Part shown: positions 1-15,790 of the stretch, piece by piece
How the letters are laid out: each line of letters starts with the position of its first letter
Position numbering within the stretch: position 1 is the first letter of the stretch
Source of the DNA: an uncultured Bacilli bacterium
GTDB taxonomy: Bacteria; Bacillota_I; Bacilli_A; RF39; UBA660
DNA length: 64,000 nucleotides
Reading direction: 5' to 3'
Assembly (NCBI GenBank): GCA_949505625.1
Contig: CATBQD010000009.1
Span: 476-64,475, forward strand
Made by a program: the position numbers and the translations under genes
The notes under the pieces: generated by a model
Seen by the model: the letters and a program-made list of their open reading frames with translations, nothing else
Told to the model about the DNA's origin: nothing
Database searches by the model: none

Positions 1-3000
1 ATTAATGCATCTTATAATTATTGGGGCTCGGAAAAGGGGCCATGGTTCAAGAATCCATATACTGGTTCCTATGAAGGCGGAACATATACAGTAAGTGATA
101 ATATTCAATTTTATCCATATAATACAACATTTATTAAAAACAGCGAAAACTCATTAGAATTAATTAAGACAATTGTTTATGATGCACCTCATTTTGGAAA
201 AGTAGGAGTTAATTCTTTTAACGGAAACTATAGTACTAAACATACAGACTTTGAAGTTTCTAATGGATTAAGTTTTACTAGAACTTACAATTCTAAAAAT
301 ACAAAAGAAAGTATATTAGGTACTGGTTGGTCATTTAGTTATGATTCTTATATTGAAAAGCATCCATATGGAGATAATTCTTATATTGTTCATTTACCAG
401 ATAGTTCTGTCAATGTCTTTATGAAACAAGAAGAAAATTATATTTCATTAAATAGTAGAAATACATTTGAAATTGTTGATGAAAAATATATCATAACAAC
501 AAAAGAACAAACAATTTATACTTATAATACAAATGGAAAACTAGAAAGTATTACAGATAAGTATGGTAATAAAACAACATTAACTTATACCAATAATTTA
601 TTGACATCTATTACAAGTAATCATAGAATTTATACATTAGAATATCAAAACAATTTACTTTCTAAAATAACTGACCCGATAGGAAGAACAGTTCGTTATA
701 GTTATTCAAATGGTCAACTTACAAAAGTAACAAATACAAATAGTATTGAGACCATTTATACTTATAATGATTCAAAACAATTGGTTGGAATAAAAGAAAA
801 TAACAATGTGATGTTAACTCTAGAATATATTACAGAAGGAATTTATAAAGATTATATTTCTAAAGTAACCAATGAAAAAGGATTAATTACAACATATACT
901 TATGATAGTGGTTCTAATATGACAACAGAAACGGACTCAAATGGAAGAATTACAAAAAAATATTACGATAGAGATGGATATGTTTATAAAGAGATTAATC
1001 CAAATGGGAATACAAAAACAATCGCTTATCAATTAGAAAATAGTGCGAATAAGTATGGTGAAATTGCTTTTGTTATTGACTTTAATTCAGCTAAAACCGC
1101 CTATACAAGAGATGATAAAGGTAATATTATAAAAATAACAAATCCAGATTCTAGCTTTAAACAGTATACTTACAATTCTAAAAATCAAGTTATAAAAGAA
1201 ATTGATGAAGAAGGAAATATTACAGAATATATTTATGATACAGATGGAGTTACTTTATTAAAACAAGTAAAACCTTTAGATGGAAAAACAGCATATACAG
1301 AAGAAGCAGATCAAAATAATTTTGAAATTATCACTTATACTTATTATGATTCAAAAGAAGTAAACAATATCAAAGGTTTAATGAAAACAAAAACAGATGA
1401 AAAAGGATTAACAACATATACTTATAATAACTATGGTGATGTTATTTCTATTACAAATGGAAACAATGAAAAAACTGTTTATTCAAAAAATAAATTAGGT
1501 TGGGTTTTAACAGAACAAATTAATGATGGTTATATTACGGAATATGAATATGATAATAACGGAAATACAACAAGTATTAAAAAAGATTCTAACTTGGTTT
1601 CTAAAGTAGAATATAATTATCAAAATAAACCAGTTAAAGTATTTGATGGAAATTGTAAAGAAAAGACTGTTTTTACACCTCTTACGTCTGGACTTAATTG
1701 GAACTCTAATCATAATTTATTAACAAATGTAGAATCAGAAACTATTTGTGATGCAATTATTTATGAATATGATATTTCAGGAAATAAAATTAAAGAAACA
1801 GATAGAGAAGGAAATACTATTACTTATAAGTATGACCAATATGGAAATGTAACAGAAAAAATTAGTCCAAATGAAAGTAGTTATTTATATGAATACGATA
1901 GTTTAAATCGATTAATTAAAACTTCTTTTAAGGACGGAGAAAATATAACTTTATTAGAAGAAAAATCTTATACGATAGCTTCTACTTCTACAACTACAAC
2001 AAAAACATATACAAATGATACAGAATTTAAAACAACTGTTGAAAGCTATAACAATAGAAATTGGAAATCTATAGAGAAACTTGAAACGAATCAAGCAACG
2101 ATTAATTATTATAAAAATGGTCAAATATATTATACAGTAGATAGAAATGGTGGATATACTTATTACTATTACAATAAAGCAAATCGATTAAGTAAAAAAT
2201 GTATTCAAGCCGATAGTTATTATATTTGTACACTATATACTTATGATAATAGTGGTAGATTGATAGAAGAAAAATTAGGAAAAAATAAAGTTTCTTATAA
2301 TGGTACTCCATCTAGTTATATTGTTACAACTTATCAATATAATGACATAGGACAAGTCATTAAAAAAATAACTTCAAGTGGAGAAGAAATAGAATATACT
2401 TATGATATTTATGAAAATGTCATCCAAGAAAAAACAAAAATAAGTGAAGACAAATATCAAACGAAAACATATGAATATAATTATTTAAATAAAGTAACAA
2501 AAGAAAATCTAGAAGGAATTATAACAACATATGAATATGATGGTGTTGGAAATATTATTAAAAAAACAACTGGTGAAAATGTAGTTACAAAATATGAATA
2601 TAATAAAAACTATCAAGTGACTAAAACAATATTGGATAATATTACTCAAGAAGAAAAAATGTATGATAACATGGGTAATATCATTATAAAAACAGATTCA
2701 AATGGTAATGCAACCAATTATATTTATGATAAAAGAAATAATGTGATTAAAGAAACAAATGCAAGAAATTTAGTAATTATTTATTCTTATGATTACAATA
2801 ATCGTTTAATAGAAACAAAAGATGCTAAAAATAATGTTATTCATTATGTATATGATAAATTTGATAATGTAATTTCTAAAACAACGAATGATACCATTAC
2901 TTATCAATATACTTATGATAAGAATAACAATGTTTTAAAAGAAATTGACCCATTAGGAAATACAACAACATATGCTTATGATAAAACCAATAAAGTAGCA

Positions 3001-6000
3001 AGAGTTACTGATAAATTAGGAAATTATAAGACATATGCTTACAATGTTTTACTGAATGTAGTAACCGAAAGAAATGAAAAAGGTATTTATATATATTATA
3101 CATATGATGATAGAGGTAATTGTATTGAAAAGAAATTAGGTTCCACTATCATTGAACAAAATGAATATGATTTGATGAATAACTTAGTGAAAAAAACAGA
3201 CGCTAATAAGAATGTAATGACATATGAATATAATGTTTTAAATCAATTGATAAAGAAGACAAATCCATTAGGTTATATAGAAGAATATGAATATGATAAA
3301 AATGGCAATTTAATTAAAATGAAAGATTATCAAAAAGAAATATTGTATTCTTATGATAATAGAGGAAATTTATTAAAAACGGTAGAACAAACATTAGATG
3401 GAAAAGAGAAAATAGAAACATCTAAAGTATATGATAATAATAACAATGTGATTAAAGAAATAGATGGAAATGGCAATATAACAACTTATACTTATGATGG
3501 CTTAAATAATGTTATTAAAATGAAAAATCCATTGAATCAAGAAACATTATATGAATATGATAATAACAATAACTTAGTGAAAGAAACAAACTATTTAGGA
3601 GATTCTAAAACTTATATTTATGATTCTTTTGATCGATTAATTGAAAAGAAAAATGAATTAGGAGAAACGATTGAAAAATTAGAATATGATTTCAATGGTA
3701 GACAAGTTAAAAGTATAGATGGATTAGGTCATACGACTACATTTGTTTATGATAAATTAGATAGAGTGATAGAAAAAATAGATTCATTAAATAGAAGTGA
3801 AAAAACAACTTATGATGCATTAGGAAATGTATTGACAAAAACAGATGCCAATGGAAATATTACAAAATATGTATATAACGACTTTAATAAAGTAACAAAG
3901 GTAACCAATGCATTAAATGAAAGTACTATCTATACATATGACAATAATAGTAATCTATTATCAGTAACAGATGGAAATAGTAAGAAAATAATTTATACTT
4001 ATAATGCTTTAAATTTAGAACTAACAGAAAAAGATGCATTAGGATTTATTGAAACAAAAGAATATAATTCAAATGGAATTTTAAAGAAAAAAACAACCAA
4101 AAATGGTTCTGAAATTAATTATACTTATGATATTCATAACAGATTGATTAAAGAAAATGATATTACTTACAAATATGATAATAATGATAATTTGTTAGAA
4201 ATTAAGGAAAATGAAAATGTAATTACTAGAGCTTATGATCAGTTAAATCGAGTAACAAAGAAAACAGAAAATAATCTTACAACAACATTTACTTATTCTG
4301 ATTATAGTGAAAAAACAGTTGATCCAAAAGGAAATGAAACAGTAAAAAACTATGATAAAGTAGGAAGATTAAAAGAAGTAGTTGGAGAAGCAGTTTATAC
4401 TTACAACTTAGATGGAACTGTTAAAAAAGTAACTTATCAAAATGGTTCAACTGAAGAATATAGTTATAAAGATGATAAGTCATTAGATACTTTAGTAAAT
4501 ACTTATCATGAGAAAGAAGAAACTTATCGTTATAGTTATGACAATAATAAAAATATCATTTCAAAATATGAAAATGGAAAAGAAACGAGTTATACTTATG
4601 ATGCATTAAACCGATTAAAAACAATTAGTGAATTCAGTTATAACGAAATAGAAAATGAAGAATTAGAAAAAGTAGAAACACTACTTACTACATATCTTTA
4701 TGATAAAGCAGGAAATAGAACCAAAGAAATAACCAGTAATATTACAAAAGAATATACTTATGATTCTAATAATAGACTTACAAAAATAATTGAAAAAGAA
4801 GATAATATAATTACAAAAACAACTATCTATACTTATGATAGTAATGGAAATCAGTTAACAGAAACCGTGAATAATGAAGTAAAAGAAACAAGTACTTATA
4901 ATGAAAGAAATGAGTTAGTAAAGGTAGTTACAGATAAAGAAACTATATATACTTATAATCCAGAAGGAAAACGAATTCAAAAACAGCAAGATAATAAAGT
5001 GATTAAATTTGTTTATGAAGGATTAGATGTTATATTAGAGTTAGATGAAAATGATAATGAGTTATCACATAATACATATGGATTAGCTTTAATATCAAGA
5101 GAGAACTCTAGTAAAGGATATTATTTATATAATGGTCATGGAGATACAGTAAGTATTGTAAATGAAGAAAATAATTTATTAAATAGCTATACATATGATG
5201 AATGGGGAGTTATAATAGAAAGTAATGGAGAGTTTGATAATCCATATAGATATGCAGGATATTATTATGATTTAGAAACAGATAATTATTATTTATTAAG
5301 TAGATATTATAATCCAGAGATAGGAAGATTTATAAGTGAAGATACCTATAGAGGAGATTATAATGACCCACTTAGTTTAAATAGATATGTATATGTAATA
5401 AACAATCCATTAATTTATATTGATCCAGATGGGTATTGGCCTAAATGGTTAGATGATTTTGGAAATTGGATAGGAAAGCGTGGGAAAGCTGTAGGAGAAG
5501 CAGCATATGAGTTTGTAGTTGATACAGGAAAAGGAACGTTAGATTTATTAGGAACAGTAAGTGGATATGTTATATCAGAAGCTGGAAAGTTTACAAATGG
5601 CTTGGCTTATGATATGGGAATAATAACAGATTATAATTATGCAGATGCTCAAAAACTTTATGGGAATTTGCATGATGTAACGAGTATGAAATTAGCCCAG
5701 ATGCCAGAAAATATAATAACAGGAATACAACAGAATTTTACTACAACATTTAATTATGATAATTTTATAAATTATTTAACAACAGATAATTATAATGATA
5801 TAAAAAATTATTCAAAATCAGTAATACAAACAGGAGTAACATTATATGGAGGATATAAGACAGCAAAAGGAATAAATAATTTAGCAAATGTAGTAAGTAA
5901 TGTAAGTATAACAACAAAACAAATACCAATAGGAAGTGTTATAAATAATAATGGTACATTATCATTAACAACAGCAACAGTACCAACTATAACGGGTATT

Positions 6001-6396
6001 AATGTAGCAACATTAAATCAAGCAATTATAAATGGAAGTATAGGAATAGCATCTATATCTACTAATGGAAATTATAATAAAAATAAACATCCTGATCCTT
6101 ACAAAAAATTCGATTTAAATAATCCAGAAAGCTTTAGAGGCGCAAAATTAGAAGATGTAGAAAATTTTATGGATGAGCATTTAAAAGATAAGACTTTAGG
6201 AAAAGGTAAACATCCATTTGAGAAAGATGTTTTGGGAGATGGAAATGGTGTGCGATATTATACTAAGAGTGGTCAAAATTTTGAATTAAACTATGGTTAT
6301 GATAAAACAATTTATGGCGGAGGAGATGGAATACATCAGGGACCATATTTGAAGACTACAGTTGGTTCAAAAGTGGTACATATTCCATTAAAATAG
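1..6396 (+). CDS. Rhs/YD-repeat polymorphic toxin, 5'-truncated by the window edge. Reading frame 1 is open from base 1, and the ORF track's Met at 421 is internal. It comprises the RHS core plus a pretoxin region and C-terminal toxin tip CT1.
   Basis: Translation from base 1 has no stop and contains an N-terminal-region motif of Rhs/teneurin proteins (SFTRTYNS...GTGWSFSYD). There are dozens of YD repeats (YxYDxxGN). The RHS core ends with the conserved NPLIYIDPDGYWP motif (DPxG boundary) at ~5400, followed by ~320 aa of non-repeat sequence. Confidence 0.85.
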   Translation: MNASYNYWGSEKGPWFKNPYTGSYEGGTYTVSDNIQFYPYNTTFIKNSENSLELIKTIVYDAPHFGKVGVNSFNGNYSTKHTDFEVSNGLSFTRTYNSKNTKESILGTGWSFSYDSYIEKHPYGDNSYIVHLPDSSVNVFMKQEENYISLNSRNTFEIVDEKYIITTKEQTIYTYNTNGKLESITDKYGNKTTLTYTNNLLTSITSNHRIYTLEYQNNLLSKITDPIGRTVRYSYSNGQLTKVTNTNSIETIYTYNDSKQLVGIKENNNVMLTLEYITEGIYKDYISKVTNEKGLITTYTYDSGSNMTTETDSNGRITKKYYDRDGYVYKEINPNGNTKTIAYQLENSANKYGEIAFVIDFNSAKTAYTRDDKGNIIKITNPDSSFKQYTYNSKNQVIKEIDEEGNITEYIYDTDGVTLLKQVKPLDGKTAYTEEADQNNFEIITYTYYDSKEVNNIKGLMKTKTDEKGLTTYTYNNYGDVISITNGNNEKTVYSKNKLGWVLTEQINDGYITEYEYDNNGNTTSIKKDSNLVSKVEYNYQNKPVKVFDGNCKEKTVFTPLTSGLNWNSNHNLLTNVESETICDAIIYEYDISGNKIKETDREGNTITYKYDQYGNVTEKISPNESSYLYEYDSLNRLIKTSFKDGENITLLEEKSYTIASTSTTTTKTYTNDTEFKTTVESYNNRNWKSIEKLETNQATINYYKNGQIYYTVDRNGGYTYYYYNKANRLSKKCIQADSYYICTLYTYDNSGRLIEEKLGKNKVSYNGTPSSYIVTTYQYNDIGQVIKKITSSGEEIEYTYDIYENVIQEKTKISEDKYQTKTYEYNYLNKVTKENLEGIITTYEYDGVGNIIKKTTGENVVTKYEYNKNYQVTKTILDNITQEEKMYDNMGNIIIKTDSNGNATNYIYDKRNNVIKETNARNLVIIYSYDYNNRLIETKDAKNNVIHYVYDKFDNVISKTTNDTITYQYTYDKNNNVLKEIDPLGNTTTYAYDKTNKVARVTDKLGNYKTYAYNVLLNVVTERNEKGIYIYYTYDDRGNCIEKKLGSTIIEQNEYDLMNNLVKKTDANKNVMTYEYNVLNQLIKKTNPLGYIEEYEYDKNGNLIKMKDYQKEILYSYDNRGNLLKTVEQTLDGKEKIETSKVYDNNNNVIKEIDGNGNITTYTYDGLNNVIKMKNPLNQETLYEYDNNNNLVKETNYLGDSKTYIYDSFDRLIEKKNELGETIEKLEYDFNGRQVKSIDGLGHTTTFVYDKLDRVIEKIDSLNRSEKTTYDALGNVLTKTDANGNITKYVYNDFNKVTKVTNALNESTIYTYDNNSNLLSVTDGNSKKIIYTYNALNLELTEKDALGFIETKEYNSNGILKKKTTKNGSEINYTYDIHNRLIKENDITYKYDNNDNLLEIKENENVITRAYDQLNRVTKKTENNLTTTFTYSDYSEKTVDPKGNETVKNYDKVGRLKEVVGEAVYTYNLDGTVKKVTYQNGSTEEYSYKDDKSLDTLVNTYHEKEETYRYSYDNNKNIISKYENGKETSYTYDALNRLKTISEFSYNEIENEELEKVETLLTTYLYDKAGNRTKEITSNITKEYTYDSNNRLTKIIEKEDNIITKTTIYTYDSNGNQLTETVNNEVKETSTYNERNELVKVVTDKETIYTYNPEGKRIQKQQDNKVIKFVYEGLDVILELDENDNELSHNTYGLALISRENSSKGYYLYNGHGDTVSIVNEENNLLNSYTYDEWGVIIESNGEFDNPYRYAGYYYDLETDNYYLLSRYYNPEIGRFISEDTYRGDYNDPLSLNRYVYVINNPLIYIDPDGYWPKWLDDFGNWIGKRGKAVGEAAYEFVVDTGKGTLDLLGTVSGYVISEAGKFTNGLAYDMGIITDYNYADAQKLYGNLHDVTSMKLAQMPENIITGIQQNFTTTFNYDNFINYLTTDNYNDIKNYSKSVIQTGVTLYGGYKTAKGINNLANVVSNVSITTKQIPIGSVINNNGTLSLTTATVPTITGINVATLNQAIINGSIGIASISTNGNYNKNKHPDPYKKFDLNNPESFRGAKLEDVENFMDEHLKDKTLGKGKHPFEKDVLGDGNGVRYYTKSGQNFELNYGYDKTIYGGGDGIHQGPYLKTTVGSKVVHIPLK

Positions 6397-6409
6397 AAAG
6401 AGGTTCAGT

Positions 6410-6808
6410 ATGAAAGAAAAAGACTTATTATCTTTTTTAGGAGATATAGTAGAACAGGATAGTGATTTAGAAACTTTGAAATCTAGACATACTATACACA
6501 ATTACGGTAAGTGTAGTTTAAATATGTTAAAAAGGATTATTATCTATGGATTAGAACACCATATATTAGAAGTATCAAAATATGTGCGCTCAGAAAAAAG
6601 ATATATTAATTTAGAACTAATGGAAAGTAAAAAAATAATTGAAAATGATAATTATTGGGAAAATGGCGAAAATGAAGTATATTATGTCACCTTTATAGAT
6701 ATTCCACACTATTTCTTTATTATATTTGGTCCATATGGTGTAACTGGAGAGCATGCTTTTGAAGGAGCGAAAGTTCCAGATGAATTTACGCAATTTATAA
6801 TTGAGTAA
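6410..6808 (+). CDS. Putative immunity protein cognate to the Rhs CT1 toxin tip
   Basis: A small ORF lies 13 bp downstream of the rhs stop with an RBS (AAAGAGG) 7 nt upstream of the ATG. This is the canonical position of rhsI immunity genes. There is no recognisable family. Confidence 0.5.
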   Translation: MKEKDLLSFLGDIVEQDSDLETLKSRHTIHNYGKCSLNMLKRIIIYGLEHHILEVSKYVRSEKRYINLELMESKKIIENDNYWENGENEVYYVTFIDIPHYFFIIFGPYGVTGEHAFEGAKVPDEFTQFIIE

Positions 6809-6825
6809 AAATATGTTTTAACTAA

Positions 6826-6857
6826 GCCAATCAAGTGATTGGCTTTCTCTATCTTTT
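6826..6857 (+). terminator. Rho-independent terminator after the imm1 gene
   Basis: Perfect 8-bp inverted repeat GCCAATCA/TGATTGGC (6826..6843) followed by TTTCTCTATCTTTT. Confidence 0.5.
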
Positions 6858-6938
6858 ATGTACATTAAAACTGTCCAAGTAAATAAATTACTCAAAGTTA
6901 AGCAGCTGACTTAGTAATCGGCATAAAAACAATAAAAA
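6851..6938. repeat. Cassette-boundary repeat, copy A (full length)
   Basis: ATCTTTTATGTACATTAAAACTGTCCAAGTAAATAAATTACTCAAAGTTAAGCAGCTGACTTAGTAATCGGCATAAAAACAATAAAAAG. Related copies occur at 9938..10027 (full), 11237..11263 (left half only) and 14231..14280 (right half only). Confidence 0.8.
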
Positions 6939-6956
6939 GAAACCAAGCTAAGTTAT

Positions 6957-9511
6957 AAACAGATGCCAATGGAAATATTACAAAATATGTATATAACGAC
7001 TTTAATAAAGTAACAAAGGTAACCAATGCATTAAATGAAAGTACTATCTATACATATGACAATAATAGTAATCTATTATCAGTAACAGATGGAAATAGTA
7101 AGAAAATAATTTATACTTATAATGCTTTAAATTTAGAACTAACAGAAAAAGATGCATTAGGATTTATTGAAACAAAAGAATATAATTCAAATGGAATTTT
7201 AAAGAAAAAAACAACCAAAAATGGTTCTGAAATTAATTATACTTATGATATTCATAACAGATTGATTAAAGAAAATGATATTACTTACAAATATGATAAT
7301 AATGATAATTTGTTAGAAATTAAGGAAAATGAAAATGTAATTACTAGAGCTTATGATCAGTTAAATCGAGTAACAAAGAAAACAGAAAATAATCTTACAA
7401 CAACATTTACTTATTCTGATTATAGTGAAAAAACAGTTGATCCAAAAGGAAATGAAACAGTAAAAAACTATGATAAAGTAGGAAGATTAAAAGAAGTAGT
7501 TGGAGAAGCAGTTTATACTTACAACTTAGATGGAACTGTTAAAAAAGTAACTTATCAAAATGGTTCAACTGAAGAATATAGTTATAAAGATGATAAGTCA
7601 TTAGATACTTTAGTAAATACTTATCATGAGAAAGAAGAAACTTATCGTTATAGTTATGACAATAATAAAAATATCATTTCAAAATATGAAAATGGAAAAG
7701 AAACGAGTTATACTTATGATGCATTAAACCGATTAAAAACAATTAGTGAATTCAGTTATAACGAAATAGAAAATGAAGAATTAGAAAAAGTAGAAACACT
7801 ACTTACTACATATCTTTATGATAAAGCAGGAAATAGAACCAAAGAAATAACCAGTAATATTACAAAAGAATATACTTATGATTCTAATAATAGACTTACA
7901 AAAATAATTGAAAAAGAAGATAATATAATTACAAAAACAACTATCTATACTTATGATAGTAATGGAAATCAGTTAACAGAAACCGTGAATAATGAAGTAA
8001 AAGAAACAAGTACTTATAATGAAAGAAATGAGTTAGTAAAGGTAGTTACAGATAAAGAAACTATATATACTTATAATCCAGAAGGAAAACGAATTCAAAA
8101 ACAGCAAGATAATAAAGTGATTAAATTTGTTTATGAAGGATTAGATGTTATATTAGAGTTAGATGAAAATGATAATGAGTTATCACATAATACATATGGA
8201 TTAGCTTTAATATCAAGAGAGAACTCTAGTAAAGGATATTATTTATATAATGGTCATGGAGATACAGTAAGTATTGTAAATGAAGAAAATAATTTATTAA
8301 ATAGCTATACATATGATGAATGGGGAGTTATAATAGAAAGTAATGGAGAGTTTGATAATCCATATAGATATGCAGGATATTATTATGATTTAGAAACAGA
8401 TAATTATTATTTATTAAGTAGATATTATAATCCAGAGATAGGAAGATTTATAAGTGAAGATACCTATAGAGGAGATTATAATGACCCACTTAGTTTAAAT
8501 AGATATGTATATGTAATAAACAATCCATTAATTTATATTGACCCAGATGGGCATTTACCTAAGTGGTTAAAAAGTATTGTAGATGATGTATCTAATTTAG
8601 GAAAGACATTAGGAGCTACAATACATGGAGGAGCACAAGCTTTAGGAGATGCGATTATAGGACTTGGACAAATGACAATTGATGGTGGAACAATATTCTT
8701 ATATGGAAGTGCAGCATTTGGAAATGAAATCTATCATAATTTAGGATTATTTAGTGATGAAGATTATGAAAGAAATTTAGACTATTATACAGATAAGTTA
8801 ATAGATAGTGGAAGTAGATTAAATCCAATAAATGCAATAAATGGAATAAAAGAAAACTTTGCAACAACATTTAATTTAGATAACATAGAGAGATTTGTAG
8901 ATAAAGATACTTCATATTTTGATAAGGTTGCATATGCAAATGAAGCAACAAAGACAGCAATGACAGTATATGGAACATATAAAGTAGGAAAAGGTATTTA
9001 TAATAAAGTTACACAGCCATCATCATTTGGAGAAATGAGTAAAGCAGATGCATCAGGTTATAAAAATTATTGGAATCAAGTAAAGCAAGGCTTGACAGTA
9101 GAACAAAGATATAATTTACAAAAATTTGGGACAATGAATACTTTTGCAGATTATATGACTTTAGATGATGCAGCAAATTATAATCAGCATTGGGAACAGG
9201 TAAAACAAGGTTTAACTGCAGAGCAAAGATATAATTACGCTAGGTATGGTAATTTTGAAGGTGTGCCGATTCAAAATAATCCACTTACTGGCTATACTAG
9301 ACATGGATTAAATTCTGCGATAAGTCATGATGGAGTAGGAATTCGTCCAAGTAGTATATTAGATACAGTAAAAAATCCATTAAAGATAAGACCAGGCACA
9401 GATCATACAGTAAGATATATTGGAAAAGAAGGAGTAGTAAATTTAAACTATGATGGCAAATTAACTACTACTTGGTCAAAAGGAAGCGCATATTGGAGGA
9501 TGAAAAAATGA
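6957..9511 (+). CDS. Orphan Rhs C-terminal module (promoterless) carrying an alternative toxin tip CT2
   Basis: 6957..8552 is a near-identical duplicate of rhs 3839..5434 (constant offset of 3118 bp). Only one mismatch was noticed, GATCCAGAT versus GACCCAGAT. It is in frame and open from the TAA at 6954. There is no ATG start or RBS (the ORF track uses TTG at 7262). After the shared DPDG motif the sequence diverges completely (HLPKWLKS... versus YWPKWLDD...) to a different ~320-aa C-terminus. Confidence 0.8.
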
Positions 9512-9777
9512 GTAATAAATTAACAAACGCGGATATAGAGGAAATTAATAATTGTTTTTCACAGTTTCATAGAAATGATTCTTTTTTGCCAATAACATTA
9601 GAAAAAATAGTAAATAATAAAGAATTGTTAGAAGAATGTTTATTTTGCGTGGATGATATGTATCATCATGCTGGAGTAAAAGAGGATTGGGAACCTAATG
9701 ATTATGGTCTTTTGCTATATCACATAGAGGAGAAAATAAATAATCGCATCTATTTTTTGCAAGATAATGATAGTTAA
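9508..9777 (+). CDS. Putative immunity protein cognate to orphan toxin tip CT2
   Basis: The ATG at 9508 is preceded by GGAGGA and overlaps the orphan rhs stop codon (GGAGGATGAAAAAATG). A small acidic protein in the immunity position. The ORF-track start at 9472 lies inside rhs and is unlikely. Confidence 0.5.
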   Translation: MSNKLTNADIEEINNCFSQFHRNDSFLPITLEKIVNNKELLEECLFCVDDMYHHAGVKEDWEPNDYGLLLYHIEEKINNRIYFLQDNDS

Positions 9778-9794
9778 GAAAGGTAATAACTAAG

Positions 9795-9831
9795 GGGTGT
9801 CATGAAATAGCAGTGTGACACCTATTTTTTA
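9795..9831 (+). terminator. Rho-independent terminator after imm2
   Basis: GGTGTCA..TGACACC stem followed by TATTTTTTATTTT. Confidence 0.5.
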
Positions 9832-9937
9832 TTTTATTGCAATTTTTAAATTTAATAATTCATTATGAAATATAGGTTTTAATAAATAGATATAAAAAGA
9901 CTATATGAAATTGTTTTATTTCATGACAGCCAATTTC

Positions 9938-10027
9938 GCCATCTTTTATGTACGATAAAAATTGTCTGAGTAAATCAATTAGTCAAATTTAAATAACTAA
10001 CTTAGTAATTAGTATAGAAGCAAGAGA
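9938..10027. repeat. Cassette-boundary repeat, copy B (full length, ~75% identical to copy A)
   Basis: ATCTTTTATGTACGATAAAAATTGTCTGAGTAAATCAATTAGTCAAATTTAAATAACTAACTTAGTAATTAGTATAGAAG aligns along its length with copy A. Confidence 0.7.
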
Positions 10028-10159
10028 TAAGGAACAGAAAATGATAAAGTTATAGTTTTCACTTTCTTTTCACAAATGATTGATTTTAATGTATGTATAT
10101 GTTACTATATGGTTAATAGTAAAGGATAGTGCTAAAAGTATTATTAGGGTGTATAGTAT

Positions 10160-11167
10160 ATGAAAAAATTAAGTGTATGGTTTCGTGAAGTTATGGGCCT
10201 ACTTTTTTGGGGCTTTTTGCTTGTAATTGCTATTTCTGGATTGTTTACAGGATCAAATTCAGTTATAAAAAATTTAACATCTGATTGTGTGATTTATACA
10301 GTAGAAGATCTGGAGAAATGTTATAATGAAAATCAATATGTTGAAGTTCATACAATGCAAGTATTAGATGGTGGTTATGAGCATATTGAAGATAACAATG
10401 GAACTGGAAAATTTGTAATTATAAATCTAGATGGACATGGAATGATTTCTTTATTAAAAGAATCATTAGCAGACTCATTATTAACAAATGAAATAGAACA
10501 GGTTGTTATAAAAGGAAAAATTGAAAAATTCAGTCAATCTAATAAAACAGTGAGTGATAATATAGAAAAACAATATAAAGAAGCATTTAAAGATGTGCAT
10601 ACTGAAGAAGAACTTGCAACTTTGTTTACTGCCATTCAATTTAATCAATATGATGCTGATAAGGGAACTTTAATTTTTCTTTTGGTCTTTTATATTGTTG
10701 CTATAATATGGTTTTTGTCAAGAATCATTCGTAAAATTCCTGGTGTCATAAAGCCAGAACAATATCATTTTAATAATAGTGTTTCTATTAGAGAAAAACC
10801 AGATTTTAATAAAGTTTTAGAAGAATTTGACTCAAAAAAATATTATTTTCAGTATAAAAATATCTATATTACAGAACACTATTTGATTAAAAAGAGAGGA
10901 AAACGATTACATGTTACTTCTAAGGATTGCATTGCTTGGATTTATGAAAAAAAGGTAACCGTTAATTTTATAACTTATTCTCACTATATAGTGGTTCATA
11001 CATTTGATAGAAAAAGAGCTTTACGTATTACAGTCAATGAAAAAAATAAAACATTTATTATGGAAGCATTAAGAAAAGAGTGTCCAAACGCAACTTTTGG
11101 ATACAACTATTCTCTTGCAAGTTTATGGAGAAAAAATCCAGAGCGTTTTATAAAAAATAACGAATAA
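10160..11167 (+). CDS. Membrane protein with 2 TM segments (N-terminal and central) and a C-terminal soluble domain, function unknown
   Basis: ORF with hydrophobic helices LLFWGFLLVIAISGLF and LIFLLVFYIVAIIWFL. The C-terminal region (YKNIYITEHYLIKKRGKRLHV...) is loosely reminiscent of a bacterial PH-like fold, which is weak evidence. It lies between two copies of the cassette repeat. Confidence 0.5.
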   Translation: MKKLSVWFREVMGLLFWGFLLVIAISGLFTGSNSVIKNLTSDCVIYTVEDLEKCYNENQYVEVHTMQVLDGGYEHIEDNNGTGKFVIINLDGHGMISLLKESLADSLLTNEIEQVVIKGKIEKFSQSNKTVSDNIEKQYKEAFKDVHTEEELATLFTAIQFNQYDADKGTLIFLLVFYIVAIIWFLSRIIRKIPGVIKPEQYHFNNSVSIREKPDFNKVLEEFDSKKYYFQYKNIYITEHYLIKKRGKRLHVTSKDCIAWIYEKKVTVNFITYSHYIVVHTFDRKRALRITVNEKNKTFIMEALRKECPNATFGYNYSLASLWRKNPERFIKNNE

Positions 11168-11236
11168 AAATGTATCAGTTTGCATTTAATTAAATTTTAC
11201 TTTGTTCATTTAAAGATAACTATTTATAATATTTTC

Positions 11237-11263
11237 CCATCGTTTATGCACATTAAAAATATG
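11237..11263. repeat. Cassette-boundary repeat, copy C (left half only)
   Basis: CCATCGTTTATGCACATTAAAAATATG matches the left ~25 bp of copies A and B, then diverges. Confidence 0.6.
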
Positions 11264-11334
11264 AAAATTCTGTTTATATTGATTAAACTATGGTAAAATA
11301 ATGTTAACTTATATATTTAGCAGTGAGGAATATT

Positions 11335-14247
11335 ATGAGAGAAAAATCAAATAAAAACCAAAAGAAATATGACGGTATTTTTTTAGAAAAACCAATTAGT
11401 AATGCTAATGAAGATGTTTTTGGCATTTCTCCCTATGCAGAACAATTGTATACTGCAATTGAAAATGAGGCTAAATTTATAGCAATTGATGGTCAACATG
11501 GGAGTGGAAAATCTAGTTTAATTAATATGGTAAATGATATAATAAAGAAGCCGAAAAAAAAGCATTTTTGGAATCGAAAACAAAAGAATTTTTTTGTCAA
11601 TATTAACTTTTTAAATATTAATGAATCTAGTATTGAAAGTAATGAAATTGTTTCTTCTAACGAAATCGGCGAAAATTGTAAAGAAAAACAGACAAATCAA
11701 AGTATTATTAATAAATATCATAGATATTTTGTGAACCAAGTTGCAAATGATTTATATAGAAATCCATATGATATTGAAAAATTATTTTATAATAATTTTA
11801 TTTCCTATTCTACAGTTTCTTTACAAAATCATACAAAATGGAAAATGATTATTGATAAACTATTATTAATTTTATTTTCATATGCTGTAGTATATTTATC
11901 ATCTTTTAGTGCATTAGAGGACACAAAAGTTTTCAAACCAGTGAAAGAATTGGCTACTATAATATTTTGGATTTCCTTATTTGTCATATTAATCCTCCTA
12001 GTTCTTTATGGATATGGATTTTATAAACCAGAAAAATCTGAGCAAAGTCCAATGTTAGATGTTGATAAATGTAGAAATAATCTATGCAAAATATTATTTA
12101 ATGTAGTTCCTAAGAAGAGTAATGTATATTTTATTATTGATGATCTAGATAGAGTAGATAAGACCTTGCAGTTACAAATTATTTCTCTATTATATAATGA
12201 ATATTATCCATTAGATAATCTTATTAAAAATATTAATCTAAAATTTATTTTTATGATAGATATTCATAAATTAAATGAGAATGATGTTGATGCATATAAA
12301 TTATTTGATTATATTATTAATGTCTCTAATAATCAACCTATAGTTTTAAGAAATTACATTGAAAAAATGATTGAGGAAGATGCAATTTTAAGATTAATTT
12401 TTAAAGATATAAAATCAAGAGATTATATTATTGGCTTAATTGCAAATCATTATTCAAAAATAAGAAATATCAAACATTTATTTAACCGAATTATTATGAA
12501 ATATTTGTATTTAAAAAATCAAGGGTATCAAGATATTAATAGAGAGCAATTAATAATAATAAGTTTACTAGCTGGTTTAAATGAAACTGATAAATTGAAT
12601 GAAGCATTAGATATAGCAGTTAATAAATCCATAAATCAAATATCTGATGATGGAAATGATAAAGGTAATAAAGATGATAAAAAGATGTTTACAATTATTA
12701 AAGAAGTGCTTCGTAAAAACTTAATAGATAATAATTTCTATATTTATCTATATAATTTTATAGATGTAAATGATTTATTAACTTCTGATGAACAATTGAT
12801 TTATAAAACTGCAAATGATAATTATTCTTCAACAGAAGAAGATTGGACACATGTATATGAAATACTGGAAGGTGACGGTGTATCATTTTCCAAAATATAT
12901 AATCAGATTTATAAATATTTAAGTAATAACGGAAAACTGTTAATGTTGGGAAGCCCTAAATTTTATTACTATGTTAAAATGAATTTCTCACTAAAAGATA
13001 TTGATATAAAAGATGTATATAAAAATCAATTTATACATTTATCTTTTTCAAACATTTGTGGAACGGATGGAATAATTTCTCTACCTTCTGAAGAAACTGA
13101 GACTTTAAATAATTATTATACTGAATATGTAAAAAATGTTAATAATGAAGAAGCAAAAGAAAGATTCATAGTAGAATTAAAAGAATTTATAACCAGTATG
13201 AAGTGGAATATAAAGTATTTTAAATTATCAAATTTTCTAGATTCAGTTTCATTAGAAAAAGATCTCTTTGATTTGTTATATAGTCAAAAATATAATGAAG
13301 TTCCAGTTATCTTTGAAATGATTTTAAATGGTTGTTTGAAGTGGGAAAATATAAAAGCATTTATTGATGATGATATGATAAATGACATTCTAAAAATAGA
13401 AGATATAGAATCAAGAAAGAAGTTAGAGGAAAGTATATTAAAAGTTGATATTCCATTCAATCACATATTATCTATTATTTGTAATGAAAAACAAAAATTA
13501 ACTGATATTGATTCTTATCTAGAAAAGATAAATGAAATGGAGAATAAAACAATTTCATTAGAAAAATTGGCAAAGATTATTGAGCTTTATGGATATAAAG
13601 AAATTTTAGATAAGCATATCATAGCTCTTTTAGATAATGATTCTAAAAAAGTAGTTAATTTCTTCAAGCAATATGAATTGAATTTATCAAAAAAAATATT
13701 AAACCATTTAAATTCAATTCGATATGTATACTCTTATAATAAGTTTTATAATGATTTATTTATAAAAGAAAAATATTATAAATTGTATATTTATTCCAAA
13801 GCAATAGAGAAAAAGTCTTTTGAAGTAGAAAGCAAACTGAAAACTAGGAAAGAATATATAAAATCCTTGATGGATGTGTATATAAGAATGGATGAAGGAT
13901 TTAAAAGGTATCATTTTTCGGATAATTTTAAAATCACTATTATTGACAATTTCAAATTAGATGATTTTGAAATTACAGAAGATAATTTTTGGAAAATATT
14001 AATATTAATTCCCAAAATTAATGACTATAGTAAAGCACAGAAATTTTTTGAAAGAATAAGAGAGTTGAATCTATTAAAAGCCTTTTCTAAATATTGTAGT
14101 AATGAATGTAAAGAATTAGAGTTTATAAAAAACTTGAGGATGTATGCAGAAGAATTTGGAGACAAATCTGATAAATCAATATTAACTAGAGCCAAAAGAA
14201 AATTGGAAAACGAAATGGAAAAATCAAAATCAATTACTCAAAGTTAA
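11335..14247 (+). CDS. KAP-family P-loop NTPase with 2 TM helices inserted in the NTPase domain
   Basis: Walker A IDGQHGSGKSSL. Two hydrophobic helices (LLLILFSYAVVYLSSF and IIFWISLFVILILLVLYGYGF) lie between Walker A and Walker B. The Walker B is VYFIIDDLDR, the hhhhDDLDR motif that is the KAP hallmark. The likely start is the ATG at 11335 after GTGAGGAA (the track's GTG at 11323 is the RBS itself). An extended -10 element, TGGTAAAAT, lies at 11291. The last 7 codons and the stop are encoded by repeat copy D. Confidence 0.75.
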   Translation: MREKSNKNQKKYDGIFLEKPISNANEDVFGISPYAEQLYTAIENEAKFIAIDGQHGSGKSSLINMVNDIIKKPKKKHFWNRKQKNFFVNINFLNINESSIESNEIVSSNEIGENCKEKQTNQSIINKYHRYFVNQVANDLYRNPYDIEKLFYNNFISYSTVSLQNHTKWKMIIDKLLLILFSYAVVYLSSFSALEDTKVFKPVKELATIIFWISLFVILILLVLYGYGFYKPEKSEQSPMLDVDKCRNNLCKILFNVVPKKSNVYFIIDDLDRVDKTLQLQIISLLYNEYYPLDNLIKNINLKFIFMIDIHKLNENDVDAYKLFDYIINVSNNQPIVLRNYIEKMIEEDAILRLIFKDIKSRDYIIGLIANHYSKIRNIKHLFNRIIMKYLYLKNQGYQDINREQLIIISLLAGLNETDKLNEALDIAVNKSINQISDDGNDKGNKDDKKMFTIIKEVLRKNLIDNNFYIYLYNFIDVNDLLTSDEQLIYKTANDNYSSTEEDWTHVYEILEGDGVSFSKIYNQIYKYLSNNGKLLMLGSPKFYYYVKMNFSLKDIDIKDVYKNQFIHLSFSNICGTDGIISLPSEETETLNNYYTEYVKNVNNEEAKERFIVELKEFITSMKWNIKYFKLSNFLDSVSLEKDLFDLLYSQKYNEVPVIFEMILNGCLKWENIKAFIDDDMINDILKIEDIESRKKLEESILKVDIPFNHILSIICNEKQKLTDIDSYLEKINEMENKTISLEKLAKIIELYGYKEILDKHIIALLDNDSKKVVNFFKQYELNLSKKILNHLNSIRYVYSYNKFYNDLFIKEKYYKLYIYSKAIEKKSFEVESKLKTRKEYIKSLMDVYIRMDEGFKRYHFSDNFKITIIDNFKLDDFEITEDNFWKILILIPKINDYSKAQKFFERIRELNLLKAFSKYCSNECKELEFIKNLRMYAEEFGDKSDKSILTRAKRKLENEMEKSKSITQS

Positions 14248-14280
14248 ACAACTGACTTAGTAATCAGCATAAAAGCATAA
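14231..14280. repeat. Cassette-boundary repeat, copy D (right half only; ~90% identical to the right half of copy A)
   Basis: AATTACTCAAAGTTAAACAACTGACTTAGTAATCAGCATAAAAGCATAAG versus copy A AATTACTCAAAGTTAAGCAGCTGACTTAGTAATCGGCATAAAAACAATAA. Confidence 0.75.
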
Positions 14281-14285
14281 GAAAA

Positions 14286-14306
14286 AAGGAAGAAGACTTC
14301 CTTTTT
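14286..14306. terminator. Bidirectional hairpin terminator shared by the KAP NTPase (+) and the yjcZ-like gene (-)
   Basis: GGAAG AAGA CTTCC followed by TTTTTT, and preceded by an A-run on the other strand. Confidence 0.45.
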
Positions 14307-14482
14307 TAGTTATTAAATGCTCTTGCGCCAATAACGATTACTAATAAGATAAATAGGACTAAGATGATAGCAGCACCATATCCAGCACCACCACCGTATC
14401 CGTAGCCTCCACCATAAGATGGATACCCAGAATTGCAGCAACAGTTATTACCATAACCGCTGTAACCACCGTAATAATACAT
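14306..14482 (-). CDS. YjcZ-family-like small Gly/Tyr/Cys-rich sporulation peptide with a C-terminal membrane anchor
   Basis: MYYYGGYSGYGNNCCCNSGYPSYGGGYGYGGGAGYGAAIILVLFILLVIVIGA. Glycine-rich peptides with this hydrophobic tail (xxILVLFILLIIVG) are the Bacillus YjcZ sporulation family. The true start is likely the ATG at 14482, 6 nt after GGGAGGG. The ORF-track start at 14497 lies inside the RBS. Confidence 0.5.
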   Translation of the reverse strand: MYYYGGYSGYGNNCCCNSGYPSYGGGYGYGGGAGYGAAIILVLFILLVIVIGARAFNN

Positions 14483-14590
14483 TATAATCCCTCCCATCTA
14501 ATCTAATATATTGTATTAAACTGTCAAAATAATGTTTATGAAATTCACCTATTTTTGAAAAATTGATTGTGAGATAATCAAATATATGTT

Positions 14591-15790
14591 ATGATTAAAT
14601 ATAGAGTAGGTGAGGATATGATCAAGCAAATAAGACGTAACTTACATGATTTAGATAAACCATTACTCTTTATTACTGTAGCATTCTTTTTGTTTGGATT
14701 ATTCAATATCGTAACTGCCTCTAGTAGAGAAGCTGTTGTTAGATATGATGCTTCTATGTATCATTATTTCTTTCAGCAATTAAAAATGCTTGCTATTGGT
14801 TTTGTAGGATTTTTAATTATCATTAATGTTGATAGTAAAAACTATCCAAAATGGGCATTTTTCTTATTTATAGGAGTCTTATTTTTATTAATTTATTTAT
14901 CTTTAGCTGGAACAGAACATAAAGGCGCTAAAAACTGGGTTAATATTATGGGATTTTCCTTTCAACCTAGTGAATTTGCGAAACCCATTATTATCGTTTC
15001 TTTAGCTTGTTTATTTGACTTATTTGGTAAAAAATTAAAAAATAAACGAATTGCTCATTATGATATGATATCTGTTATTTTGATTGTAGGATTATTAATT
15101 CCTGTTATTGTCTTTTTGCAGAAAGACTTTGGAACCATGTTAATCTTAATGACGATTTTCTTTGTAATGTTTTTTGCAAGCCCCATTTTAAGAATAGAAA
15201 AACTAAAAACTTTTTTCTTATTAATTGGACTTGGTATTGTAGCATGTGCTATGATGATTATGGTAAAAGGATATATTTTATCTCCAGCTCAAATGGCTAG
15301 ATTTGATTTCTTTAATCCTTGTTCAAAATATGAAGAAGGAGGATATCAAGTCTGTAATGGCTTTATCGCTTTTAACGATGGAGGACTATGGGGGTTAGGA
15401 ATTGGAAAAAGTAAACAAAAATATTCATATATACCAGAACCACATACTGATAGTATCTTTGCAATTATAGGAGAAGAATGGGGGTTTTTAAAAAGCACAT
15501 TGATTTTTATTGTTTATGCATATATCTTAAAACGGATCTTAGATCTATCATCCAAAGCGAATACAATAAGAGGAAAATTTATTTGCTTAGGCGTTCCTAC
15601 TTATATATTTTCCCATGTTTTAATTAATTTAGGAGGACTATTTGGAGTGATCCCATTAACTGGAGTTCCACTTCCGTTCTTATCATATGGAGGATCATTT
15701 GCCATTTCTTTAATAGGATCATTAAGTCTGGTACAAAGAATTCATATAGAAACGAAAAATCAAAAAATTAATATAGGAGGAAGAATATGA
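14591..15790 (+). CDS. SEDS-family peptidoglycan glycosyltransferase (FtsW/RodA/SpoVE)
   Basis: Multi-TM protein with the conserved SEDS loop GIGKSKQKYSYIPEPHTDSIFAIIGEEWGF. An alternative start lies at 14618, just after GGTGAGGA. Confidence 0.8.
   Translation: MIKYRVGEDMIKQIRRNLHDLDKPLLFITVAFFLFGLFNIVTASSREAVVRYDASMYHYFFQQLKMLAIGFVGFLIIINVDSKNYPKWAFFLFIGVLFLLIYLSLAGTEHKGAKNWVNIMGFSFQPSEFAKPIIIVSLACLFDLFGKKLKNKRIAHYDMISVILIVGLLIPVIVFLQKDFGTMLILMTIFFVMFFASPILRIEKLKTFFLLIGLGIVACAMMIMVKGYILSPAQMARFDFFNPCSKYEEGGYQVCNGFIAFNDGGLWGLGIGKSKQKYSYIPEPHTDSIFAIIGEEWGFLKSTLIFIVYAYILKRILDLSSKANTIRGKFICLGVPTYIFSHVLINLGGLFGVIPLTGVPLPFLSYGGSFAISLIGSLSLVQRIHIETKNQKINIGGRI

Follow-up and report, generated by a model that had tools for sequence, protein, structure and literature searches.

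A divergent KAP-clade membrane NTPase at the edge of an Rhs array, a candidate stand-alone defence gene of uncultured gut Bacilli

Introduction

Does a large membrane nucleoside triphosphatase (NTPase) encoded beside a polymorphic-toxin array act in defence, and, if so, alone or together with the small membrane protein encoded just ahead of it? The question is raised by a 64,000-nucleotide stretch of DNA from an uncultured Bacilli bacterium (contig CATBQD010000009.1; the whole stretch is called the window below), in which two co-oriented open reading frames (ORFs) lie on the + strand at 10160-11167 (335 amino acids, aa) and 11323-14247 (974 aa, GTG start). A sequence-only reading of this DNA had called the same two frames, which we find as described, and had proposed that they form a defence module made of a KAP NTPase and a partner with two transmembrane (TM) segments. 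We report here that the larger protein is very probably a divergent TM NTPase of the KAP clade, that its C-terminal region belongs to a very small family, and that the company kept by its homologues supports a defence role, probably of this gene on its own.

KAP stands for the Kidins220/ARMS-PifA clade of P-loop NTPases, a definition that is said to go back to Aravind et al. in 2004. Such a protein is described as a P-loop NTPase with a Walker A motif GxxxxGK[ST], a Walker B motif hhhhD[DE], and two (or four) TM helices inserted between Walker A and Walker B (bioRxiv 2022.08.21.504612).

Results

A P-loop NTPase domain interrupted by a membrane hairpin

We analyzed the larger protein with alignment A1, which holds 34 relatives of the window KAP protein and from which all conservation figures are taken; residue numbers follow the 974-aa frame. 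The features on which the assignment rests are the following.

11335-14247, + strand: KAP-family TM P-loop NTPase gene, 970 aa from ATG (open frame from GTG 11323, 974 aa)
11491-11517, + strand: Walker A (P-loop) GQHGSGKSS, residues 57-65; G57, G60, G62, K63, S64 and S65 invariant in 34 sequences
11833-12006, + strand: two-helix TM hairpin within the NTPase domain, residues 171-228, from the AlphaFold2 (AF2) model and hydropathy
12124-12153, + strand: Walker B VYFIIDDLDR, residues 268-277; D273, D276 and R277 invariant, D274 and L275 at least 90% conserved
12340-14244, + strand: all-alpha C-terminal region, residues ~340-974, family-private and putatively a sensor or specificity region, from AF2 and HMMER

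The Walker A motif, the two intervening TM helices and the hhhhDDLDR motif that the sequence-only reading had picked out are all present and conserved in the 34 relatives, and two hydrophobic segments separate Walker A from Walker B in 34/34 aligned members. An AF2 model built on alignment A1, with a mean predicted local distance difference test score (pLDDT) of 81, consists of a split alpha/beta P-loop domain, the TM hairpin, and an all-alpha chain from residue ~340 onward. Its hairpin helices (171-197 and 202-228) overlap the Kyte-Doolittle peaks (175-198 and 210-228). The TM helices themselves are poorly conserved, unlike the juxtamembrane motifs on both sides, YHRYFVNQ before the hairpin (Y132 H133 R134 .. 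N138 Q139) and YGYGFYKP..SPMLD.DK after it (G230 Y231 G232 .. K235 P236 .. S242 P243 .. D248), both of which are strongly conserved. The NTPase domain has an ASCE-type, AAA+/STAND-like fold, which we liken to Orc1/Cdc6, BrxC and RdrA.

Translation probably starts at ATG 11335 (970 aa) rather than at GTG 11323, because a Shine-Dalgarno-like GAGGA (11325-11329) stands ahead of it with a 5-nt spacer and because gene callers picked this start in three independent assemblies (contigs L025-L028; here and below, L and P numbers are our labels for loci and proteins). The same locus recurs at essentially 100% identity in three independent metagenome assemblies and two short-read contigs. Two trivial explanations were considered and ruled out: GC content is 22-34% across the AT-rich window, and a 2.9-kb open frame at 22-24% GC with a conserved protein product is not credible as a chance ORF, while a pseudogene is incompatible with motifs that are all intact and a sequence that is identical across four or more independent assemblies.

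Profile searches gave one answer for the protein and another for its family. In an hmmscan against Pfam-A, the window protein had no match to PF07693 (KAP_NTPase) at E<=0.1 and only weak generic P-loop matches, such as NACHT and AAA_16, and scans of NCBIfam and PHROG gave no KAP match. In contrast, 23/34 aligned full-length homologues match PF07693 above its gathering cut-off of 20 bits (best E 8.6e-12), and these matches span nearly the whole profile, whose length is 293: P0059 reaches 44.3 bits (profile 6-292), P0025 35.4 bits (18-292), and P0001, the closest relative at 59% identity, 22.4 bits (2-284). The KAP profile hit that had been expected is thus absent from the protein alone and present in most of its aligned homologues. 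Moreover, the PADLOC PifA model is matched at the N terminus by 34/34 members (best E 7e-10; for the window protein, residues 21-80 against model positions 7-70 of 720, E 2.2e-9), and it is the sole PADLOC model common to all, QatA being matched by 9/34 members and BrxD by 3/34. Because 23/34 homologues match PF07693, PifA matches in 34/34, the key motif residues are invariant and every member has the two hydrophobic segments, we read the missed match as a sensitivity failure of the profile. The window protein thus shows the Walker motifs, the TM insertion and the fold of a KAP NTPase, with profile similarity appearing at the level of the family.

A C-terminal region confined to one small family

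Beyond residue ~340, we found no Pfam, NCBIfam or PHROG domain. In the AF2 model this region consists of helices only, with pLDDT mostly 80-94, and its fold matches are low-probability and solenoid-type only (transportin, Scc2, DSR2); a PDB sequence search with the family profile returned only a chance-level P-loop match to EcfA2 (E 0.76). Run exhaustively with HMMER against 1.84 billion cluster representatives, residues 400-974 retrieved 25 proteins, which were either proteins of 930-1035 aa matching at the same position or short fragments, with no other architecture among them. Since all 25 matches have the same architecture or are fragments, the ~600-residue C-terminal region is, as judged by sequence, private to this small KAP family. 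It also diverges faster than the rest of the protein, with a mean identity to the window protein of 30-34%, vs 49-61% in the NTPase core.

Homologues lie mostly among defence genes and mobile elements

We searched 5.8 billion proteins and obtained 66 full-length homologues at 30-59% identity. Among 185,579 species-representative genomes, 18 relatives were confirmed, 14 of them spanning most of the protein, and nearly all came from uncultured gut Bacilli or other Bacillota metagenome-assembled genomes. The window's own 970-aa protein (P0073, 11335-14244) is present in a 15-billion-protein collection, in which its 90% cluster is represented by a 179-aa fragment; a word-indexed homologue search topped out at 59% for P0073, which is a database artefact rather than biology and could mislead estimates of novelty.

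We then compared ~18 non-redundant contexts of KAP homologues. No neighbour is conserved, and the location differs in nearly every genome; most contexts hold restriction-modification (RM) systems, Gabija, Shedu, GmrSD, Abi_2, RhuM, or integrases or serine recombinases, as listed here by locus.

L009, L038: tyrosine integrase, then C5 methylase plus Eco47II or HpaII endonuclease plus ASCH directly upstream of KAP
L015: layout like L009/L038, with integrase, methylase-cluster homologue and an unannotated 126-aa ORF
L019: two C5 methylases and NgoFVII directly upstream of KAP
L017: MmeI directly upstream and RhuM directly downstream of KAP
L011, L039: RhuM directly downstream of KAP
L005: two serine recombinases, Gabija (OLD-TOPRIM plus UvrD) and DpnII
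L040: NgoFVII, GmrSD and Shedu SduA_C
L041: serine recombinase, two Abi_2, HipA and a MazG-like gene
L014: homologue of C5-methylase cluster C2 and a large serine recombinase
L018: tyrosine integrase
L001, L007, L008: ~7-kb element with KAP (only large cargo), two helix-turn-helix genes, an AAA_25 gene and a large serine recombinase

Homologues found uniformly in housekeeping contexts would have spoken against the defence proposal of the sequence-only reading; across the ~18 contexts no such uniformity was seen, which keeps a defence role plausible by association. We therefore take these neighbourhoods, as far as gene content can tell, as support for a defence role of the KAP family.

Several of these loci have features of their own. 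The ~7-kb element parts a CotZ-like spore-coat gene into halves of 68 and 80 aa (L001 9378-9584 and 16727-16969; also in L007 and L008), and resembles the skin-like sporulation-gene intervening elements of Bacillus; at the CotZ site, KAP occurs in two variants, with 46% and 47% identity to the window protein. In L005 (18014-22646), the KAP homologue lies between the two serine recombinases, with a complete Gabija pair (GajA-like and GajB-like) and a DpnII-family gene ~5 kb away. A RhuM-family gene follows KAP directly in three unrelated loci (L011 6690-7700, L017 12858-13901, L039 9861-10871), and an ASCH-domain gene stands directly upstream, between the RM pair and KAP, in at least two (L009 9480-9854, L038 6553-6933). 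The RhuM or ASCH gene could be a functional accessory of KAP in those subclades; neither is present in the window.

The locus closes an Rhs array

In the window, the DUF6709 and KAP genes are preceded by the 3′ part of a large Rhs gene (421-6396), an immunity-like gene (6410-6808), one orphan Rhs cassette (7262-9511) and a second immunity-like ORF (9472-9777). Downstream, beyond a tiny TM protein gene, lie ftsW/rodA, a pilin-like gene, comEA and comEC. Because Rhs sequence occurs upstream only and ftsW and comE genes follow downstream, the pair is the last unit at the edge of the Rhs island, and not a unit between Rhs orphan cassettes as it had been placed before. The remaining features of the locus are these.

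6825-6945, + strand: junction repeat copy 1, full, with hairpin AGCCAATCAAGTGATTGGC and T-run, then the conserved ~80 nt; after the first Rhs immunity gene
9925-10035, + strand: junction repeat copy 2, hairpin degraded; upstream boundary of the DUF6709 and KAP unit
10160-11167, + strand: DUF6709 membrane protein, 335 aa (PF20456, E=2e-13)
11271-11299, + strand: promoter-like sequence for the KAP gene, TGTTTA .. TGgTAAAAT, extended -10; seen in the sequence, function inferred
14227-14287, + strand: junction repeat copy 3, 3′ part only; downstream boundary, supplying the last six codons and stop of the KAP gene
14282-14307, no strand: terminator-like palindrome between the convergent KAP and tiny TM genes, 11-bp stem with T-runs on both sides

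The gap between the DUF6709 and KAP genes measures 155 nt and holds the promoter-like extended -10 sequence. The block TATGGTAAAATAATGT, which contains the extended -10, is kept together with a T-rich, -35-like stretch upstream ahead of the 59%-identical KAP homologue in L030/L082, so that the KAP gene appears to have its own promoter. The tiny TM protein gene (14306-14497, - strand), which converges on the KAP gene, encodes 63 aa (or 58 aa), nearly all Gly/Tyr/Cys/Asn and then one TM helix (MYYYGGYSGYGNNCCCNSGYPSYGGGYGYGGGAGYGAAIILVLFILLVIVIG...), and has no Pfam match; we take it to resemble the small sporulation TM proteins of Bacilli.

A junction element of ~110 nt, made of a terminator-like hairpin and a conserved ~80-nt block, follows each unit of the array, namely Rhs-CT plus immunity, orphan Rhs-CT plus immunity, and DUF6709 plus KAP. 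Repeat matches were found at 6881-6941, 9972-10032 and 14227-14287, where 0 are expected by chance, and the last two delimit the pair, as the sequence-only reading had recognised. Copy 3 shares 85-92% identity with copy 1, and over 35 nt it matches the L030 copy at 97%; no further copy aligned within the 64-kb window, and a possible degraded remnant at ~11230-11260 was recognised by eye only. In a related species, copies lie at 96-210 and 1839-1925 of L030 and at 1-43, 349-432 and 3467-3532 of L082, which puts the element upstream of DUF6709, in part upstream of KAP, and 10 nt past the KAP stop. Between the two species the element keeps 84-97% nucleotide identity, vs 52-59% for the proteins that it flanks.

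We found no Rfam match over 6300-14700, and the junction repeat is not a known RNA family. A pattern scan of JGI metagenomes for the junction core (17 specified bases) gave 40 matches, all of which proved on re-alignment to be ~20-nt chance matches. An integron attC site was also considered and rejected, for want of an integrase and of any supporting evidence. Most simply, the junction element can be read as the downstream homology arm for the exchange of Rhs-CT/immunity cassettes, with KAP and DUF6709 captured into, or overrun by, the array. We see a small chance that the element is instead the recombination arm or site of a cassette-exchange platform that shuffles KAP, DUF6709 and toxin/immunity units. 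The orphan Rhs cassette, for its part, starts with an exact duplicate of the main Rhs core (3839-4138 = 6957-7256), and its protein equals the main Rhs from the ORF start to ...NPLIYIDPDG, after which come a different C-terminal toxin and its own immunity-like ORF (9472-9777); it apparently represents a classic and very recent Rhs cassette displacement. Positions 10160-14247 show no RHS_repeat match or Rhs similarity, so that the KAP and DUF6709 unit is not an Rhs orphan cassette, and it has only the terminal junction repeat in common with the Rhs units.

A proposed model of single-gene defence

What we established directly for the KAP protein comprises its motifs, topology, fold class, family size and genomic company. 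From these, we consider it somewhat probable that the protein is a stand-alone, single-gene defence against phages or other mobile elements, encoded by an apparently independent cassette which closes the Rhs toxin/immunity array at its distal end, and that it works roughly as follows; oligomerisation, trigger, output and antiphage activity are drawn here by analogy. The protein would form an oligomer in the membrane, with the NTPase domain's two halves and also the C-terminal region on the cytoplasmic side. This C-terminal region, alpha-helical and variable, would recognise a phage-encoded protein, and this recognition would turn on nucleotide turnover at the Walker A/B site. The hairpin and the juxtamembrane motifs would then relay the signal, such that the ion balance or energy state of the cell is altered (or ATP is simply depleted) and phage replication is halted. 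The output could resemble that of Tmn (ATP depletion, Mg2+ export and plasmolysis) or that of PifA (membrane leakiness).

A number of observations weigh against this model. Beside the KAP gene, the window holds no RM system, integrase or recognised antiphage gene, its immediate neighbours being the Rhs toxin/immunity cassettes and core division and competence genes; among the homologues, the L039 context is otherwise housekeeping apart from RhuM. The case from neighbouring defence genes is guilt by association, and GenBank phage, PLSDB plasmid and IMG/VR collections gave no KAP-family relatives (tblastn for phage and plasmid). At the level of the protein, to the lack of a direct PF07693 match must be added that the PifA match is confined to ~60-70 N-terminal residues in the window protein and all 34 relatives, none of which shows full-length similarity to PifA, and that the PADLOC Tmn model matches neither the window protein nor any of the 34 relatives; PF20693 (YobI-ATPase), which is Tmn's family, is reached by one relative only (P0064, 35.7 bits). 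For its mechanism the model draws on Tmn and PifA, distant relatives only, and EF_KAP, a validated KAP protein discussed below, was reported to be non-abortive, so that the output may differ between KAP subfamilies.

Alternative explanations

The other gene of the pair encodes, in agreement with the sequence-only reading, a 335-aa protein with two TM segments (11-29 and 172-190 by hydropathy). Its AF2 model, of moderate confidence (pLDDT 70), runs from TM1 through a beta-rich extracytoplasmic domain (43-163) and TM2 to a cytoplasmic, PH-like domain of beta-sheet plus helix. Foldseek returned tandem PH domains (Rtt106, Spt16, Pob3) and the bacterial PH proteins 3dcx and 3hsa, with marginal E-values and high local probabilities. 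A literature search on DUF6709 returned nothing, and only four homologues were found. Distant homologues (L034 7920-8936, L037 5560-6567) stand in the order SecG, CoatF, DUF6709, proS, RadC, MreC, MreD and end 4-6 nt before proS; in L034-L037, DUF6709 occurs without KAP. Because these distant homologues occupy a conserved core CoatF-proS context, the gene order suggests that, in this lineage, DUF6709 normally is a membrane protein linked to the envelope or to sporulation and not a conflict gene; the proS locus of the window genome falls outside the window.

On this background, the DUF6709 and KAP genes could be taken as an obligate two-gene defence system, in which the 2-TM PH-domain protein serves as membrane sensor or effector partner. 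The two genes stand next to each other in one orientation, no terminator is predicted between them, both encode membrane proteins, and the nearest DUF6709 homologue (52% identity) again lies upstream of the nearest KAP homologue (59%) in L030/L031. However, tblastn found no DUF6709 gene in any of 14 other KAP loci and none was called in four further annotated KAP contexts; the pairing proposed by the sequence-only reading thus shrinks to adjacency in the window genome and L030/L031. DUF6709 has no PADLOC match, and its next homologues, P0069 and P0070 (40% and 37%), lie without KAP between a CoatF gene and proS. In L030, moreover, the two genes stand 680 bp apart, and the interval holds a small decayed ORF and part of a junction repeat; strain L082, whose KAP gene and 390 nt upstream are 98.9% identical to those of L030, carries beyond that point a junction-repeat end and then a truncated Rhs YD-repeat fragment in place of DUF6709. 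Because DUF6709 is missing at other KAP loci, L030 and L082 differ, and KAP keeps its own conserved promoter-like sequence, the two genes behave, in these comparisons, as separate cassettes; a two-gene module is not supported, and an obligate one we regard as improbable. A tie to the Rhs polymorphic-toxin locus, with KAP acting as membrane guard, Rhs-handling accessory or unusually large orphan "immunity" cassette, would fit the position of KAP directly after two Rhs-CT/immunity units, its end within the same junction repeat, and the truncated Rhs YD fragment and junction repeats that also flank the KAP homologue in the related species. We judge it quite improbable, given that tblastn found no Rhs at any other fetched KAP locus, where the neighbours are RM, Abi, Gabija and integrase genes, that the KAP unit has neither an Rhs core fragment nor a PxxxxDPxGL-type junction, and that the Rhs association is limited to the nearest clade, for which shared locus ancestry can explain it.

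Alternatively, KAP may serve the mobile elements or arrays that carry it, by exclusion, addiction or stabilisation, with phage defence as a side effect. It is the only large cargo of the 7-kb serine-recombinase element in CotZ (L001/L007/L008) and lies within tyrosine-integrase elements in L009, L015, L018 and L038; PMC13552941 cites the opinion that restricting phages may not be what PifA primarily does, and the occurrence of Tmn with Gabija in plasmid leading regions has been read as conflict between mobile genetic elements. Yet no integrase or recombinase lies nearby in the window or in L039 (in the window genome, none was called within 10 kb on either side of DUF6709), the KAP proteins that have been tested give up to 6 logs of protection from lytic phages, and such a role overlaps with defence rather than excluding it; we find it unlikely. 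A housekeeping or signalling NTPase of the membrane, for example one linked to the envelope or to sporulation and outside conflict, is in our view highly improbable: the window neighbours (ftsW/rodA, competence genes, the tiny Gly/Tyr-rich TM protein) and the spore-related neighbours at some homologue loci (GerA operon, CotZ, CoatF) would suit it, but the family is tiny and patchy (66 proteins in 5.8 billion; 18 matches in 185,579 species genomes), lacks conserved synteny, sits mostly in mobile or defence islands and has a fast-evolving C terminus. Taken together, these comparisons leave single-gene defence as the reading that we prefer.

Discussion

What is new here is an uncharacterised, very small KAP subfamily with a private C-terminal region from uncultured gut Bacilli, amounting to about 25 clusters at 50% identity, nearly all from such bacteria. 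If the proposed function is true, the family adds a specificity module to the single-gene, membrane-embedded defences of the KAP/Tmn type, and in its private C-terminal region of ~600 residues it would hold a new phage-sensing domain from a poorly sampled, spore-forming gut lineage. Proteins of this class will be under-counted by defence finders that rely on profiles, given that the KAP model of Pfam fails to detect the window protein. The gain in practical terms is modest, since precedents have been published for the architecture, for the single-gene logic and for the defence role alike. The junction-repeat array is the sole aspect that could lead to conceptual novelty: if the cassette-exchange platform were real, it would constitute a shared armoury, integron-like or rAID-like, both interbacterial and antiviral and without a recombinase of its own, downstream of an Rhs gene in gut Bacilli.

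Comparison with known systems

The prototype of the bacterial KAP NTPases is PifA of the F plasmid, a membrane-associated protein with an abortive or exclusion function that excludes phage T7. The window family has the KAP clade in common with it and differs in being chromosomal in Bacillota rather than plasmid-borne in Enterobacteria, in having no pifC-like partner, and in its unrelated C-terminal region. RdrA of RADAR and BrxC of BREX belong to soluble, multi-gene systems without a TM hairpin, and no RdrB, BREX or Pgl genes lie near the window KAP gene.

The sequence-only reading held that KAP NTPases are mostly uncharacterised, a statement overtaken by antiphage data on PifA, Tmn and four KAP proteins with C-terminal regions of unknown type; single-gene defences of the KAP/Tmn type were validated in 2026 (PMC13552941, PMC13001434). 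Phage protection of E. faecalis, reaching six logs, is conferred by EF_KAP and by three KAP proteins from gut metagenomes, all four with C-terminal regions of unknown function; it depends on Walker B as well as on the C-terminal region, and in the case of EF_KAP it did not behave as abortive infection (PMC13552941). Like the window family, to which we compare it by description only, the EF_KAP type is a single gene of Bacillota/gut origin whose KAP domain contains a TM helix and is followed by a long C-terminal region without known domain or structural relative, and it is linked to serine recombinases and defence islands. EF_KAP has one N-terminal TM helix, one in the KAP domain and a C-terminal region of 322 aa, whereas the window protein has a hairpin in the NTPase domain and ~600 aa. 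The recombinases of the EF_KAP type are small, and those of the window family are large, about 490-545 aa with Recombinase and Zn_ribbon_recom domains (L001, L005, L007, L014 and L041, with none at the window copy).

The other point of comparison is Tmn, a YobI-like transmembrane NTPase (Gao 2020, as far as cited in bioRxiv 2022.08.21.504612). Tmn forms a decamer whose cytosolic arms bind the phage protein RIIB, upon which ATP turnover and Mg2+ export rise and plasmolysis follows; specificity is determined by its variable C-terminal region, and no operon around it is conserved (PMC13001434). Its median length is ~1270 aa in E. coli clades, vs 970 aa for the window protein, and it is found on plasmids, unlike the window family in the PLSDB search. 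The ARM/HEAT solenoid and proximal coiled-coil arm of Tmn are not demonstrable in the window family, in which solenoid matches are weak. Tmn is reported to synergise with Gabija, and the KAP homologue in L005 lies ~5 kb from a Gabija system. In both families, Walker A, two TM helices, Walker B with a D..R signature and a variable alpha-helical C terminus make up a self-contained protein, and it is this pattern, a conserved NTPase core joined to a variable C terminus, that leads us to liken the window KAP protein to a Tmn-type defence.

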